This document shows, in pieces, positions 2,587-60,327 of a stretch of DNA of 64,000 nucleotides. The position numbers were made by a program, and so were the translations under genes. Source of the DNA: a virus; the UHGV virus genome UHGV-0033085; one strand, given 5' to 3'. How positions within the stretch are numbered: position 1 is the stretch's first letter; each line of letters begins with the position of its first letter. The notes under the pieces are model-generated. The model made no database searches. It was not told where the DNA came from and saw nothing but the letters and a program-made list of their open reading frames with translations.

Positions 2587-2853
2587 ATGACGTTAACCGA
2601 TAAACAAAAGGACATCATCAAAACGCTCAATCTCGGTTATGAGCGAGGTCATCTACTTGATCTGGACGAATTGCTTGAAGTTTTGCCGTACAAGACAACC
2701 AAGCAAAGTATCCAGTTCTCAATTCGTGCTCTGATAAAAAAGGGGCTGGTGGAGAAAGGGCATACGCGCCAACGCAGTGACAATCGCTATCACCGCCGAA
2801 CTCTTGGGTTAACCACTTTAGGTCGAGCCAAAGCGAAGTTACTGGTGATGTAA
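2587..2853 (+). CDS. hypothetical small basic protein (possible DNA-binding)
   Basis: 88-aa ORF, lysine/arginine rich. Confidence 0.3.
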   Translation: MTLTDKQKDIIKTLNLGYERGHLLDLDELLEVLPYKTTKQSIQFSIRALIKKGLVEKGHTRQRSDNRYHRRTLGLTTLGRAKAKLLVM

Positions 2854-2877
2854 TCGGTCTGGGAGCTTATTTAAAGA

Positions 2878-2933
2878 CCTGCTTCTGTATATATAAATAA
2901 TAAGTAATTTATTAAATATATACGGAAGCAGGC
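2878..2933. repeat. 55-bp AT-rich palindromic element, copy 1 (near-identical copy at 35075-35129)
   Basis: CCTGCTTCTGTATATAT...ATATATACGGAAGCAGG inverted arms; 54/55 identical to second copy. Confidence 0.8.
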
Positions 2934-3049
2934 TTAATAAGACATGCCCAGACCTAATTAAACACCCCAGAAAACAAGTTGGTTAGCAGATGCAGTAAAC
3001 AAGTTGTTTTAGAGCGCATGGACGCGCTCTGTGTGTTTTAGAGGGATCT

Positions 3050-3682: not shown

Positions 3683-4938
3683 TGGCAATCCCGTCCTCGC
3701 TCAGTCTTGTGCAACTGCATTCTGGACAGATGAAAGTCTTCCAGTCTCCGCATCGATTTAAAGTTGTTTGTGCTGGTCGACGCTGGGGAAAATCCCGGTT
3801 GTCGATCTCCACTATTATTCGTGCGGCGGCAAAGGAAAAAAAGCAAAGGGTCTGGTATGTCGCTCCTACTTACCAGATGGCTCGCCAGATTTTGTGGGAC
3901 GATCTACAGGAAGTTCTGCCTCGTAAGTGGGTTAGGAAAAAGAACGACACCACGATGACAATCGTGTTGAAGAACGGTTCGGAGATCGCCCTCAAAGGTG
4001 CTGATAAGCCTGACACTCTGCGCGGCGTAGCGTTGCATTTTGTAGTGCTTGATGAATTTCAGGATATGAAGGCTGACACCTGGTACAAGGTGTTACGACC
4101 TACTCTTTCATCGACACGCGGCGGTGCACTGATCATTGGTACGCCAAAAGGCTTCTCGGAATTTCACAAACTGTGGACTATAGGCCAGAACGTAGAGCTG
4201 CAAAGAAAGGGACAGTGGAAGAGCTGGCAGTTTGTAACTGCCGATTCTCCGTTTGTGCCTACGGCGGAAATTGAAGCTGCTAAGAACGATATGGACCCGA
4301 AATCGTTCGCTCAGGAGTACCTGGCGAGCTTTGAGAACATGTCCGGGCGCGTTTACTACCCGTTCGATCGTAACGTGCATGTAAAACCGCTTCAGTTCAA
4401 CCCTCGGTTGCCTATATGGGTAGGGCAGGACTTCAACATTGACCCGATGTCTTCAGTAATTTTGCAACCTCAGCCAAATGGTGAGCTATGGGCAATTGAT
4501 GAATTGGTGCTCTTTTCCTCTAACACGGCAGAGGTTTGTGATGAGCTTGAGAGACGCTTCTGGCGCTGGAAATCACAGATAACGGTATTTCCAGATCCGG
4601 CAGGTGCTTATCGCCAACATGCTCGCGGGGAGTCTGACGTCGACATTTTCAAAGAGAAGGGATTCTTACGTGTCGATTATTCGAAAAAGCACCCGCCAAT
4701 TGCGGATCGTGTTAATGCTGTTAACCGAATGCTGATGACCGCATCTGGAGATATCCGGTTGTATATCGATCCGAAGTGCAAGCATTTGATTGATTCACTG
4801 GAAAAAGTCATCTACAAGCCTGGAACACGAGATATGGATAAGACAGGTGGCATTGAGCATAGTGCAGACGCATTGGGCTATCCAGTACATCGTAGGTATC
4901 CAGTCAAAAACCGTGTTATTCTTGGTGGTTCTCGATAG
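3682..4938 (+). CDS. terminase large subunit
   Basis: Walker A CAGRRWGKS, Walker B VVLDEFQD, C-terminal nuclease-like region. Confidence 0.85.
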   Translation: MAIPSSLSLVQLHSGQMKVFQSPHRFKVVCAGRRWGKSRLSISTIIRAAAKEKKQRVWYVAPTYQMARQILWDDLQEVLPRKWVRKKNDTTMTIVLKNGSEIALKGADKPDTLRGVALHFVVLDEFQDMKADTWYKVLRPTLSSTRGGALIIGTPKGFSEFHKLWTIGQNVELQRKGQWKSWQFVTADSPFVPTAEIEAAKNDMDPKSFAQEYLASFENMSGRVYYPFDRNVHVKPLQFNPRLPIWVGQDFNIDPMSSVILQPQPNGELWAIDELVLFSSNTAEVCDELERRFWRWKSQITVFPDPAGAYRQHARGESDVDIFKEKGFLRVDYSKKHPPIADRVNAVNRMLMTASGDIRLYIDPKCKHLIDSLEKVIYKPGTRDMDKTGGIEHSADALGYPVHRRYPVKNRVILGGSR

Positions 4939-57609: not shown

Positions 57610-58683
57610 ATGGCAAAAGGAAAATCCGCACTGGCACTTGCTCTGAAAAAGAAAATCGGTAGCAACGACGAAATTCAGAAAGTAACTCATTGGATTGACA
57701 CAGGCTTTCCTCCGTTAAACAAAGCGATTTCCGGTCGTTACGATGGCGGTTTCCCATGTGGTCGTATCGTAGAAGTATTCGGGCCACCAAGCGCGGGGAA
57801 AACCTTTTTGGCAACGGCAGCAATGATCTCCGCACAGAAACAAGATGGTCTGGCGGTATTCCTCGATCATGAGAACAGTTTTGACGTTGGCCTGGCTGTA
57901 GCCAATGGTTTGAATGCAGATGAGGATGACGGTCAGTGGGTATACAAGCAGCCTGATACCTTCGAAGACTCTGTAGAGTTGATCGGCACAATTCTTAAAT
58001 TGGTACGTGATGAAGAGCTTATTCCTGAATCAGCACCTATCTGTATCGTGGCTGACTCACTTGCGTCTATGGTTCCGAACTCCAAAGCCGAGAAGTTCGA
58101 AAAGATGGCTGAAGGCACTGCCAAAGACAAAGATCAGCTAAACATGAACGACAATACGGCACTGGCTCGTGCGACAAGTGCGAACTTCCCTACTCTGGCT
58201 TTGTGGGCACGCAAATACAACGCCTGCATCATCTTCTTGAATCAGGTTCGCACAAAAATCGGTGTAATGTTTGGCGACCCTACTACGTCTCCAGGTGGAG
58301 ATTCACCGAAGTTCTACGCTTCTGTACGTATCCGTCTTGGTGCATCGGTGATGAAGGATGGTAAAGAGAAGATCGGCCAGGACGTAGGCGCAGAATGCAT
58401 CAAAAACAAAGTTGCACCACCGTATGGCAAATGCACCTGGAAATTCTACTTCGATCCTACTCGTGGCCTCGACGTTATCGAATCGCTCGTCGAGTACATG
58501 CTGGAAGAAGGATACCTGCCAAAGAACGCCAGCGGGCGAGTTGAAATTGGTGACAAGAAATACACCAAATCGCAGATCGTCGAGATGTATCGGGAGAAGC
58601 CACTGGCTGAAATCATTGCGGCTTTGCAGGCAATCGACGACCGAAGAGCAAAAGACAACCCCACCGAGTCAGTAGAAGAGTAA
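57610..58683 (+). CDS. RecA/UvsX-family recombinase
   Basis: Walker A GPPSAGKT; RecA-like core. Confidence 0.7.
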   Translation: MAKGKSALALALKKKIGSNDEIQKVTHWIDTGFPPLNKAISGRYDGGFPCGRIVEVFGPPSAGKTFLATAAMISAQKQDGLAVFLDHENSFDVGLAVANGLNADEDDGQWVYKQPDTFEDSVELIGTILKLVRDEELIPESAPICIVADSLASMVPNSKAEKFEKMAEGTAKDKDQLNMNDNTALARATSANFPTLALWARKYNACIIFLNQVRTKIGVMFGDPTTSPGGDSPKFYASVRIRLGASVMKDGKEKIGQDVGAECIKNKVAPPYGKCTWKFYFDPTRGLDVIESLVEYMLEEGYLPKNASGRVEIGDKKYTKSQIVEMYREKPLAEIIAALQAIDDRRAKDNPTESVEE

Positions 58684-58687
58684 ACAC

Positions 58688-58714
58688 AAGGCGTCCACAG
58701 GACGCCTTTTTTAT
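58688..58714 (+). terminator. rho-independent terminator
   Basis: AAGGCGTCC-ACAG-GACGCCTT followed by TTTTTATC. Confidence 0.7.
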
Positions 58715-58775
58715 CTCTTGAAAATATATAAGTACTTACTTATTATTTTCGCATAACAACCACATAGGAAAACAC

Positions 58776-58976
58776 ATGATCAAAATCTATCTATTGGCAG
58801 TAGCCACAGGCGTTTCAGTGGCTCTCATCTACGGTTTACTGGTTCCGTCGCTGATTTCTACCAAGAGTGATTTAGCCGTCATGTTTGGAGTTATCGTTGG
58901 TTTTGGTGCTCCTGTAATCGGTCTTATTGCTGGTCGTAAGTTTATCAACTCATTAATCAAAGCAAAGGGGAAATAA
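58776..58976 (+). CDS. small two-TM membrane protein
   Basis: 66 aa, two hydrophobic helices; precedes SPFH gene by 3 nt. Confidence 0.4.
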   Translation: MIKIYLLAVATGVSVALIYGLLVPSLISTKSDLAVMFGVIVGFGAPVIGLIAGRKFINSLIKAKGK

Positions 58977-58979
58977 GTA

Positions 58980-59810
58980 ATGAAGAAAGGTTTACTTGCA
59001 GTTGCTCTGGCGGCTATTTGCACAATGGGTCTTACTGGCTGTGATCGCGTGGAGCCTGGATACGTTGGCATCAAAGTAAACAAATTAGGTGAAGACAAAG
59101 GGATCGGTGAAGTGGTTGGCGTTGGTCGCCAATGGACAGGTCTTAACACCGAACTTTACGTATTCCCGACCTTCAAACAAATGAAGACCTACGACGAGCC
59201 GTTCACATTCCAGATGAGTGACGGTACTGCTATTGGTCACAAAATTGGCGTTGCGTATCTGGTTAATCGTGACAAGGTAACGACGGTGTTCCAGACCTAT
59301 CGCAAAGGCGTAGACGATATCACCGAATCAGATCTGCGTCAGAAAATTGCCGACTCTCTAAACCGTTTGGCCAGCCGTATGACCACTGACTCATTTATCG
59401 ACGGTGGTAAGGCGCAATTGCTGGACAACGCACTGAAAGATATTCAGAAAGAGATGTCTCCGGTTGGTATTGAGGTACTGAGCCTGTCATGGGTTGGAAA
59501 GCCTGATTACCCAAAAACCGTCATTGAATCTATCAACGCCAAAGTAACGGCTAACCAGCGTACTCTGCAACGTCAGCAGGAAGTTGAACAGCGTAAAGCT
59601 GAGGCGAATATGCTACGTGAACAGGCTAATGGTGAAGCTGATGCTATCCGTGCTCGTGCGCAAGCAGAAGCCGACGCCATTCGTCTGCGCGGTGAAGCTC
59701 TGCGTCAAAACCCGAACGTTATGGAGCTGGAAGTCATCAATAAATGGAATGGCCAGTTACCGCAGTACATGACTCAAGGGGCTAACACTCCTTTCATTAC
59801 AGTGAAATAA
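58980..59810 (+). CDS. SPFH/band-7 domain lipoprotein
   Basis: Lipobox LTGC after signal peptide; SPFH-like core; C-terminal Ala/Glu/Arg-rich coiled coil. Confidence 0.6.
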   Translation: MKKGLLAVALAAICTMGLTGCDRVEPGYVGIKVNKLGEDKGIGEVVGVGRQWTGLNTELYVFPTFKQMKTYDEPFTFQMSDGTAIGHKIGVAYLVNRDKVTTVFQTYRKGVDDITESDLRQKIADSLNRLASRMTTDSFIDGGKAQLLDNALKDIQKEMSPVGIEVLSLSWVGKPDYPKTVIESINAKVTANQRTLQRQQEVEQRKAEANMLREQANGEADAIRARAQAEADAIRLRGEALRQNPNVMELEVINKWNGQLPQYMTQGANTPFITVK

Positions 59811-59825
59811 CTCCCCTAAAAAGTT

Positions 59826-59853
59826 CAGGCGTCCAGTTGGACGCCTTTTTTAT
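59826..59853 (+). terminator. rho-independent terminator
   Basis: AGGCGTCC-AGTT-GGACGCCT followed by TTTTTATC. Confidence 0.7.
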
Positions 59854-59901
59854 CGCAATTATCTTATTAAGAAAACAATTTGTTTAAAAGGATAAGAAAA
59901 C

Positions 59902-60327
59902 ATGACAGTTATTAAGAAACTCTACGATGCCGCAAACGTGGCTCTGGATGTTATTGATGATGAAGTAGCAAAAGGCTTTCCTGAACCTGATTGGGCGCAT
60001 CAGCTACGAAACGCTATCGCCGAAATGAATCCACCAGATCCGACCACCGACGAGACAGACTGGCAGCGATTTATCCGTATGTACGCTCAGGAAATAGGTC
60101 CAACGCCAACGGCAGAGCAAGCAATGCTGCTGAAATACTTCAAAGAGGCGGGAGAGGATTTACCAATTGATGACTCAGCATATTGGTTCCACTGCACATG
60201 GCGTAAGTATGACGTGATATTCACACAAGGCATGGGGAGCAAAGATATGGTTGTGTGGCATCTACTCCATATAGACACAGCCGTTGACAGAGTTATTGAA
60301 CAGTTTTTCCCTAAACAAGAAGATTGA
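59902..60327 (+). CDS. hypothetical protein
   Basis: 141-aa ORF. Confidence 0.35.
   Translation: MTVIKKLYDAANVALDVIDDEVAKGFPEPDWAHQLRNAIAEMNPPDPTTDETDWQRFIRMYAQEIGPTPTAEQAMLLKYFKEAGEDLPIDDSAYWFHCTWRKYDVIFTQGMGSKDMVVWHLLHIDTAVDRVIEQFFPKQED

Follow-up and report, generated by a model that had tools for sequence, protein, structure and literature searches.

The 64,000-nucleotide stretch of the virus genome UHGV-0033085 analysed here (the window) comes from an SSU5-like phage-plasmid of Escherichia coli of ~108 kb. It carries a two-gene cassette, the subject of this analysis, in which a small gene encodes a 66-aa protein with two predicted transmembrane helices and a large gene encodes a 276-aa lipoprotein of the SPFH (Band 7) class. 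The two open reading frames (ORFs) lie in the same reading frame and are separated by 3 nt (TAA GTA ATG), with the Shine–Dalgarno sequence of the large gene, AAGGGG, located within the 3′ end of the small gene. The region shares 99.5% identity with 'Escherichia phage CMS-2020a' and 93% with phage Cyrano, and its gene content and gene order are common to the window and the Yersinia pestis pMT1 plasmid family.

The SPFH lipoprotein and its two-helix partner

Profile searches and the predicted structure indicate that the large protein is a genuine SPFH protein. Residues 23–209 match the Pfam family Band_7 (PF01145) with 106.2 bits against a cut-off of 23.6 (E = 2.6e-30), the protein matches PHROG 200 ('lipoprotein') with E = 3e-107, and a weak Pfam match to Flotillin covers residues 208–266. 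The AlphaFold model, a monomer prediction based on 77 homologues, has a predicted local distance difference test score (pLDDT) of 85.5 overall, mostly >85 in the SPFH domain, and is composed of a signal helix (aa 2–20), an α/β core (aa 21–176), a single 65-residue helix (aa 179–243), a short helix and a disordered tail. A Foldseek comparison of this model with the PDB gave as best matches HflK (7vhq_E, E = 3.9e-14), HflC, prohibitin, erlin, stomatin, flotillin, QmcA and major vault protein, with a probability of 1.00 for the first seven of these. All of these families are cage formers. Within the C-terminal tail, residues W256, G258 and P261 are invariant across the 77 homologues, and this segment, for which the monomer model shows disorder, might serve to cap or close an oligomer.

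A preliminary description of the locus had listed the two ORFs with their 3-nt gap, an LTGC lipobox, an SPFH-like core and a C-terminal coiled coil, all of which are present in the sequence or the model, the last as a single long helix; the search for an absent SPFH fold, which would have spoken against it, returned the fold instead. The same description had likened the genes to an HflK-type pair, and this did not hold: the cassette contains a single SPFH gene, and the HflK/HflC equivalog models TIGR01932 and TIGR01933 scored 30.2 and 18.9 bits where 134.4 and 159.4 bits, respectively, are required, in each case a shortfall of >100 bits, so that orthology to HflK/HflC was rejected. The family profile reached QmcA (its best match, E = 1.5e-6), HflK, HflC and prohibitin about equally remotely, with E between 1e-6 and 1e-4, and this equal remoteness, together with the missed equivalog cut-offs, places the protein in a separate SPFH subfamily.

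The N-terminus of the large protein fits the lipoprotein signal pattern [LVI][ASTVI][GAS]C, reading MKKGLLAVALAAICTMG-LTG-C21 with a positive n-region and a hydrophobic h-region. Among close homologues, a regular expression for the lipobox matched 97 of 119; the figures were 103 of 142 for cluster representatives and 85 of 91 for distant homologues. The residue at position +2 is Asp in 92 of 97 enterobacterial homologues. Because Asp at +2 is an established Lol-avoidance signal in Enterobacterales, the mature lipoprotein is predicted to be retained in the outer leaflet of the inner membrane, facing the periplasm. Signal, lipobox and Asp +2 together predict the same periplasmic-side placement of the SPFH domain that characterises HflK/HflC, and the domain itself starts 2–3 residues after the lipid anchor. 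In Gram-positive phages, an N-terminal signal-anchor takes the place of the lipobox and gives the same outside orientation. Among SSU5-like, P2-like, Stx and N4-like phages, the identity of the SPFH protein is 62–79%.

The small protein contains two hydrophobic stretches in a Kyte–Doolittle profile (~1–29 and 31–57), and its AlphaFold model consists of helices only (aa 2–28 and 32–65; pLDDT 72). Its charges are distributed as +1 at the N-terminus, 0 in the loop and +5 at the C-terminus; this bias, with its strongly basic tail, predicts that both termini are cytoplasmic (N-in, C-in) and are joined by a short periplasmic turn. The ORF matches PHROG 1130 (E = 9e-26), which is classed as 'moron, auxiliary metabolic gene and host takeover', and no Pfam or NCBIfam family was matched at E ≤ 0.1. 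In the alignment of partners the helices are variable and the tip is conserved (~Y...G...P-x-L-[IV]-S-[AS]-x-[SD]...V..G), corresponding here to the predicted periplasmic motif P24-S-L-I-S-x-K-S-D32, encoded at 58,845–58,871.

This two-transmembrane-helix (2TM) protein is, on the evidence of comparative sequence analysis, a genuine conserved partner of the SPFH gene. Of 134 related viral loci, 133 have a small 2TM ORF directly upstream of the SPFH gene and the remaining one is cut by a contig end; such recurrence shows that the pairing is not due to chance. The same arrangement was seen in the P2-like phage P88, the Stx-type phage phiP27, the N4-like Erwinia phage S6, the rV5-like phages SSE121 and 18-1-2, Burkholderia phiE125, Agrobacterium OLIVR5, Stenotrophomonas ANB28, Pseudomonas putida phage Meara and a crAss-like phage. 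In phiP27 (NC_003356; locus L142), the partner is a 62-aa two-helix ORF at 2,816–3,004 with the motif LLVPFLISMKD, which lies directly upstream of the lipoprotein gene L05 and carries no GenBank annotation. The gene junctions, either a 3-nt gap or ATGA and longer overlaps, indicate translational coupling. Sequence comparison further indicates that the partner diverges far more rapidly than the SPFH protein, the identities being 61% and 93%, respectively, to the pMT1 proteins and 25% and 76% to those of P88.

In-frame fusions of a 2TM segment, a signal with lipobox and an SPFH domain occur in at least 13 of the best 150 cluster representatives and in the E. coli variant P0021; examples besides P0021 are P0153, P0162, P0165, P0176, P0177, P0182 and others. 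These natural fusions argue for a 1:1 stoichiometry and for physical contact between the two proteins, and their topology fits no arrangement other than a periplasmic SPFH domain at the inner membrane. If the internal lipobox is still processed by Lgt and LspA, the fusions would yield the same two products as the two-gene form. A spanin pair was considered for the locus and rejected, as the lipoprotein is a large SPFH protein with an inner-membrane signal, the membrane protein has no periplasmic domain and the neighbouring genes belong to recombination and replication.

Boundaries, promoter and distribution of the cassette

The extent of the cassette was defined by an empty site. In the SSU5-like E. 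coli plasmid CP056788, the recA-like gene and the DUF7238 gene that flank the cassette in the window are adjacent, with one terminator between them and a base-exact junction, and the two-gene module is therefore a moron, inserted from promoter to terminator over ~1,139 bp. It has its own promoter and terminator and shows presence or absence between conserved flanking genes, as does a moron by definition, which bears out the autonomy that the preliminary description had ascribed to the module. The strong terminators that it had placed on both sides were likewise found: the left hairpin (58,688–58,708) has a folding energy of −14.7 kcal/mol (z = −6.1 versus shuffles) and the right hairpin (59,827–59,846) one of −15.1 kcal/mol (z = −5.0 versus shuffles), each followed by a T-run. 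The terminator arm GGCGTCC...GGACGCCTTTTTTATC occurs in only two copies in the window, with 0 expected by chance, and the breakpoint of the cassette is ambiguous inside the 16-nt GGACGCCTTTTTTATC common to both terminators. The cassette was either gained beside a terminator or lost through recombination between the terminator copies. Of 5,426 complete E. coli genomes, 195 (3.6%) contain it, and it also occurs on Y. pestis pMT1 and on Salmonella plasmids of the same phage-plasmid family.

The promoter block is nearly invariant across the window, Cyrano and Y. pestis pMT1, though the adjoining coding sequence diverges. Its spacer holds a perfect palindrome that recurs in the window: the pattern ATAAGTA-NN-TACTTAT was found at 12 sites with ≤2 mismatches, compared with 0.09 expected, and 10 of 11 distinct sites are intergenic, lying 14–120 nt upstream of a plus-strand ORF. 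From its sequence context, the palindrome looks like a genome-wide promoter/operator family of the phage-plasmid, and its recurrence suggests that the cassette is wired into the phage's own regulatory family. The other sites are located at 4,935, 6,442/6,446, 8,365, 11,940, 18,426, 25,341, 29,350, 42,164, 48,827 and 55,204, often inside a −35/−10-like frame.

Table 1 Features of the two-gene cassette and its borders (window coordinates).
Feature	Position	Strand	Evidence
Terminator of the upstream recA-like gene, left repeat copy, GGCGTCC-ACA-GGACGCC + TTTTTTATC	58688..58715	+	9-bp stem, 6 GC pairs, T-run
Whole insertable cassette, ~1,139 bp: promoter, two genes, terminator	58716..59854	+	Empty-site comparison
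σ70-type promoter-like site, TTGAAA, 17-nt spacer, TATTAT, 10/12 consensus positions	58718..58746	+	Sequence scan
Perfect palindrome ATAAGTA-CT-TACTTAT in the promoter spacer, candidate operator	58728..58743	+	Recurrence in the window
Shine–Dalgarno-like AGGA, 6 nt 5′ of the small-gene ATG	58766..58769	+	Read from sequence
Small gene, 66-aa two-helix inner-membrane partner (PHROG 1130)	58776..58976	+	ORF list, profile match, AlphaFold
Large gene, 276-aa SPFH lipoprotein (PHROG 200)	58980..59810	+	ORF, Pfam, PHROG, AlphaFold, Foldseek
Lipoprotein signal (aa 1–20), lipobox LTGC, Cys21 (TGT, 59040–59042), Asp22	58980..59045	+	Sequence
SPFH / Band 7 domain, aa 23–209	59046..59606	+	Pfam, AlphaFold, Foldseek
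Single 65-residue helix, aa 179–243, corresponding to wall helix CC1 in SPFH cages	59514..59708	+	AlphaFold, Foldseek
Short helix and conserved C-terminal tail, I-N-K-W-N-G-x-L-P ... P-F-I-x-V-K	59712..59807	+	Alignment, AlphaFold
Cassette terminator, right repeat copy	59827..59854	+	Hairpin and T-run; kept in Cyrano and pMT1

The gene upstream of the cassette (57,610–58,683) encodes a RecA/UvsX-like recombinase in a 357-aa allele without an intein; in Cyrano and many related plasmids, the encoded protein has 779 aa and contains a LAGLIDADG homing-endonuclease intein. The gene directly 3′ of the cassette (59,902–60,327) encodes a DUF7238 protein (PF23885, E = 7e-38; PHROG 1451) and is kept in the empty-site relative.

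A tblastn search of 50,697 phage records found the SPFH family in 423, of which 415 reached ≥80% coverage, and an all-against-library search gave 2,770 cluster representatives at E ≤ 1e-3, 191 of them with E ≤ 1e-30. The carriers are both temperate and virulent and extend from Proteobacteria to Bacteroidota, with a modified form in Firmicutes; they include the virulent groups Schitoviridae, Vequintavirinae, Ounavirinae, Bruynoghevirus, phiCbK-like, crAss-like, Lak megaphages and Herelleviridae. That many strictly virulent phages carry the family speaks against a role tied to lysogeny alone. In P88 the pair is part of the early lytic operon, the neighbours are DNA-metabolism genes in the window as well as in S6, SSE121, Pistou and B4, and in Ab22 the pair lies in the early region.

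Genes of this family are already on record as SPFH, stomatin-like or lipoprotein genes. Labels of 'serine protease' or 'transposase' also occur (KP063541, LC567838, HQ728266, OQ818705 and the NCBI proteins P0301 and P0330); no such domain was found in Pfam or NCBIfam, and these labels look like propagated mis-annotation. Our literature search returned annotation remarks only and no functional study of a phage SPFH protein. Papers of 2021 and 2026 describe the role of the phage SPFH protein as unclear, the latter stating that the reason for its presence in phage 'remains unclear' (PMC13239085). The 'band 7' of a paper on phiCbK refers to gel bands and not to the protein family, and a preprint on N4 lysis inhibition does not involve the SPFH family. 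In phiCbK (locus L139, 2,495–4,887), the SPFH gene lies two genes from rtcB, which may be coincidence; the Pseudomonas aeruginosa PA14 SPFH gene PaFlo8 is embedded in an rtc RNA-repair locus (PMC13086221).

Proposed function of the pair

We interpret the cassette as coding for an analogue of HflK/C-type SPFH scaffolds that is carried by phages and consists of two parts, a reading to which we give a probability of about 35%. The architecture and topology of the lipoprotein and its partner, from which this reading starts, are very probably as predicted. The large protein would be exported by Sec and then lipidated at Cys21, and Asp at +2 would hold it in the outer leaflet of the inner membrane, with the SPFH domain lying flat on the periplasmic face from 2–3 residues past the anchor. 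The partner, with both termini inside, would expose its tip P-x-L-I-S-x-x-S-D to the periplasm directly under the SPFH domain. The subsequent steps are modelled on solved assemblies, namely the HflK/C 24-mer, the 26 heterodimers of QmcA–YbbJ, prohibitin, erlin and stomatin. By analogy with these, the 65-residue helix and the conserved tail may mediate assembly of the lipoprotein into a closed ring or dome, and the partner may bind 1:1, adding in trans the palisade of transmembrane helices that HflK/C itself contains in cis; we lean towards such a 1:1 cage. Together, the two proteins would fence off a patch of the inner membrane. In the most speculative step, the fenced client would be an inner-membrane machine of the host, for which FtsH is the leading candidate because HflK/C gives the best fold match and, to our knowledge, no other SPFH system of the host faces the periplasm. 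Caging of this client early in infection or after induction could then change the degradation of membrane or regulatory proteins.

Modulation of FtsH-type quality control is accordingly a tentative assignment, ranked first among the physiological roles because the cassette shares compartment and fold class with HflK/C, because the SPFH protein is highly conserved across hosts and because SPFH scaffolds generally partner membrane proteases. Cages of HflK/C that enclose FtsH are described in the titles of PDB entries and in PMC12048511.

Several observations weigh against the scaffold interpretation. Identity to HflK/C is 16–18% and the equivalog models score far below their cut-offs, so that the link to FtsH is one of topology and fold class only. 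The structural evidence consists of monomer models, and the oligomer, the complex and the client are drawn by analogy. The +2 rule applies to Enterobacterales only, and most distant homologues have Ser or Thr at this position. A possibly related SPFH protein of a Pasteurella prophage has been found in outer-membrane vesicles (PMC9872710). The SPFH gene of the FelixO1-like phage Pistou has no adjacent membrane partner, and unrelated small membrane proteins occupy the partner position in phiCbK, Bacillus B4, Staphylococcus CF7 and Bruynoghevirus Ab22, from which it follows that the partner is not strictly required. Finally, a patchy accessory distribution fits a competition or defence gene equally well.

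This last point leads to superinfection exclusion or inter-phage competition, the likeliest of the alternatives and one that we nevertheless regard as unlikely. The cage and its partner would occupy or mask a component of the inner membrane required for DNA translocation by incoming phages, or shield the membrane against insertion of the tail tip or tape measure, and so protect the infected cell or lysogen from competitors. Such a role would suit the moron architecture with its presence or absence among close relatives, the patchiness within genera (missing in LUZ24 and PaP3, present in Ab22 and Delta; PMC8540360), the occurrence in both temperate and virulent carriers and the PHROG class of the partner, 'moron, auxiliary metabolic gene and host takeover'. 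The products are also expressed early and predicted to reside in the envelope, like T4 Imm and Sp. However, a search of the PADLOC-DB defence models gave no family at E ≤ 1 for either protein, the literature search gave no SPFH-fold exclusion protein, and the SPFH protein is unusually conserved across hosts (62–79%), whereas exclusion proteins usually diversify quickly.

Somewhat less likely again is a role in lysis timing or membrane integrity, in which the scaffold would stabilise the energised inner membrane, corral holins or signal-arrest-release (SAR)-type endolysins against premature lysis, or aid the export of phage envelope proteins. The Kayvirus pair mbpV–mbpS lies between the endolysin gene lysK and the secreted transglycosylase gene tgl, and its authors suggested a role in Tgl export (PMC7150955); bacterial SPFH proteins are also tied to membrane stress, an example being B. 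subtilis YdjI with PspA (PMC8581546). Outside Kayviruses, however, the pair is not found beside lysis genes and has early or DNA-metabolism neighbours instead. In Twort-like and Kay-like phages (e.g. Staphylococcus phage CF7; locus L150, 560–1,662) the pair is located inside the lysis region, unlike in Gram-negative phages.

A lysogenic-conversion surface factor, that is, a lipoprotein in the outer membrane or in vesicles that alters the envelope or virulence, for example as a TLR2 ligand, with only indirect benefit to the phage, is highly improbable: the presence of the cassette on Y. pestis pMT1 and Salmonella plasmids and a Pasteurella multocida prophage 'HflK/C-like' SPFH protein of 25–35 kDa, reported in vesicles and linked to TLR1/2 signalling, virulence, capsule and biofilm (PMC9872710), speak for it, but that protein, PM0222, is only a candidate relative of the SPFH family, Asp +2 predicts retention in the inner membrane, fusions to the 2TM inner-membrane hairpin place the SPFH protein there as well, and the pair occurs in strictly virulent phages, for which host virulence is irrelevant.

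In its boldest form, the scaffold interpretation would make the pair a split, portable substitute for HflK/C in >400 phages, which would use it to enclose a universal inner-membrane machine, with FtsH the most plausible one, in an extracytoplasmic cage and thereby to reprogram the turnover of membrane proteins. We consider this version doubtful; if true, it would represent a host-takeover strategy not yet described and would provide the first function for PHROG 200, which is among the largest orphan phage protein families. HflK/C, prohibitins, stomatins and flotillins are now seen structurally as membrane cages, and their functions in bacteria are debated. As a compact two-gene SPFH scaffold, the cassette is a candidate minimal model for the assembly of SPFH cages, and identification of the cage client would give a role to a large phage family that has none. 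If the pair is merely a redundant scaffold, the value lies in annotation, that is, in correcting the 'serine protease' and 'transposase' labels and adding the missed partner ORF.

Relation to known SPFH systems

The closest structural counterpart of the lipoprotein is E. coli HflK/HflC, with which it shares the SPFH fold, the long wall helix, a candidate C-terminal closure segment and a predicted location on the periplasmic face of the inner membrane, and which provides both the best structural match (7vhq_E/G) and the best, if weak, NCBIfam match. The cassette differs in having one SPFH gene instead of two paralogues, a lipid anchor instead of an N-terminal transmembrane helix, and a phage as its carrier. 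At 16–18% identity, the likeness is one of fold and predicted topology.

The second counterpart is the group of SPFH–NfeD pairs, to which the genes had been likened at the outset as an NfeD–stomatin pair. As in QmcA–YbbJ (PDB 8z5g), YqiK–YqiJ and archaeal PH1511–PH1510, the SPFH gene shares a transcription unit with a neighbouring gene for a small membrane protein, here across a 3-nt gap with one promoter and one terminator. NfeD identity of the partner (PF01957) was nevertheless rejected, since no Pfam or NCBIfam match was found at E ≤ 0.1 and a protein of 66 aa with two transmembrane helices and ~14 non-membrane residues has no room for the oligonucleotide/oligosaccharide-binding (OB) fold of NfeD, and the pair is therefore not a member of this group. 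QmcA–YbbJ and YqiK are cytoplasm-facing, whereas an assembly of the phage proteins would face the periplasm. QmcA–YbbJ forms a cage of 26 SPFH:partner heterodimers in a 1:1 ratio (PMC13086221).

In B. subtilis, YdjI, an SPFH protein without a transmembrane helix of its own, is brought to the membrane by small membrane proteins of the same operon (bioRxiv 10.64898/2026.02.06.704340; PMC8581546). In this YdjG/YdjH–YdjI (SamG/H–SamI) system, YdjI is cytosolic and works with PspA, unlike the phage protein, which is predicted to be exported and lipid-anchored. In the MbpV–MbpS pair of Kayvirus (Staphylococcus phage K group), an extracytoplasmic SPFH protein of phage origin is encoded directly downstream of a small membrane protein (PMC7150955). 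MbpS was reached by tblastn as a distant member of the family (E about 7e-6, 25–27% identity). This pair differs from the cassette in having a signal-anchor rather than a lipobox, a 102-aa partner with a single transmembrane helix and a charged tail, and a location in the lysis region.

Annotated homologues of the cassette itself are Cyrano CYRAN_56/57, pMT1 YPMT1.49c, pHCM2 HCM2.0006c, phiP27 L05 and the P88 'putative SPFH domain protein', with 93–99% identity in SSU5-like phages or 76–79% in P2-like and Stx phages, and with the partner often left without annotation. The cassette family is thus an already annotated, uncharacterised phage SPFH family and a distinct variant of the known SPFH–partner systems, set apart from them by its lipid anchor, its periplasmic orientation, its non-NfeD mini-partner and its mobility as a moron.

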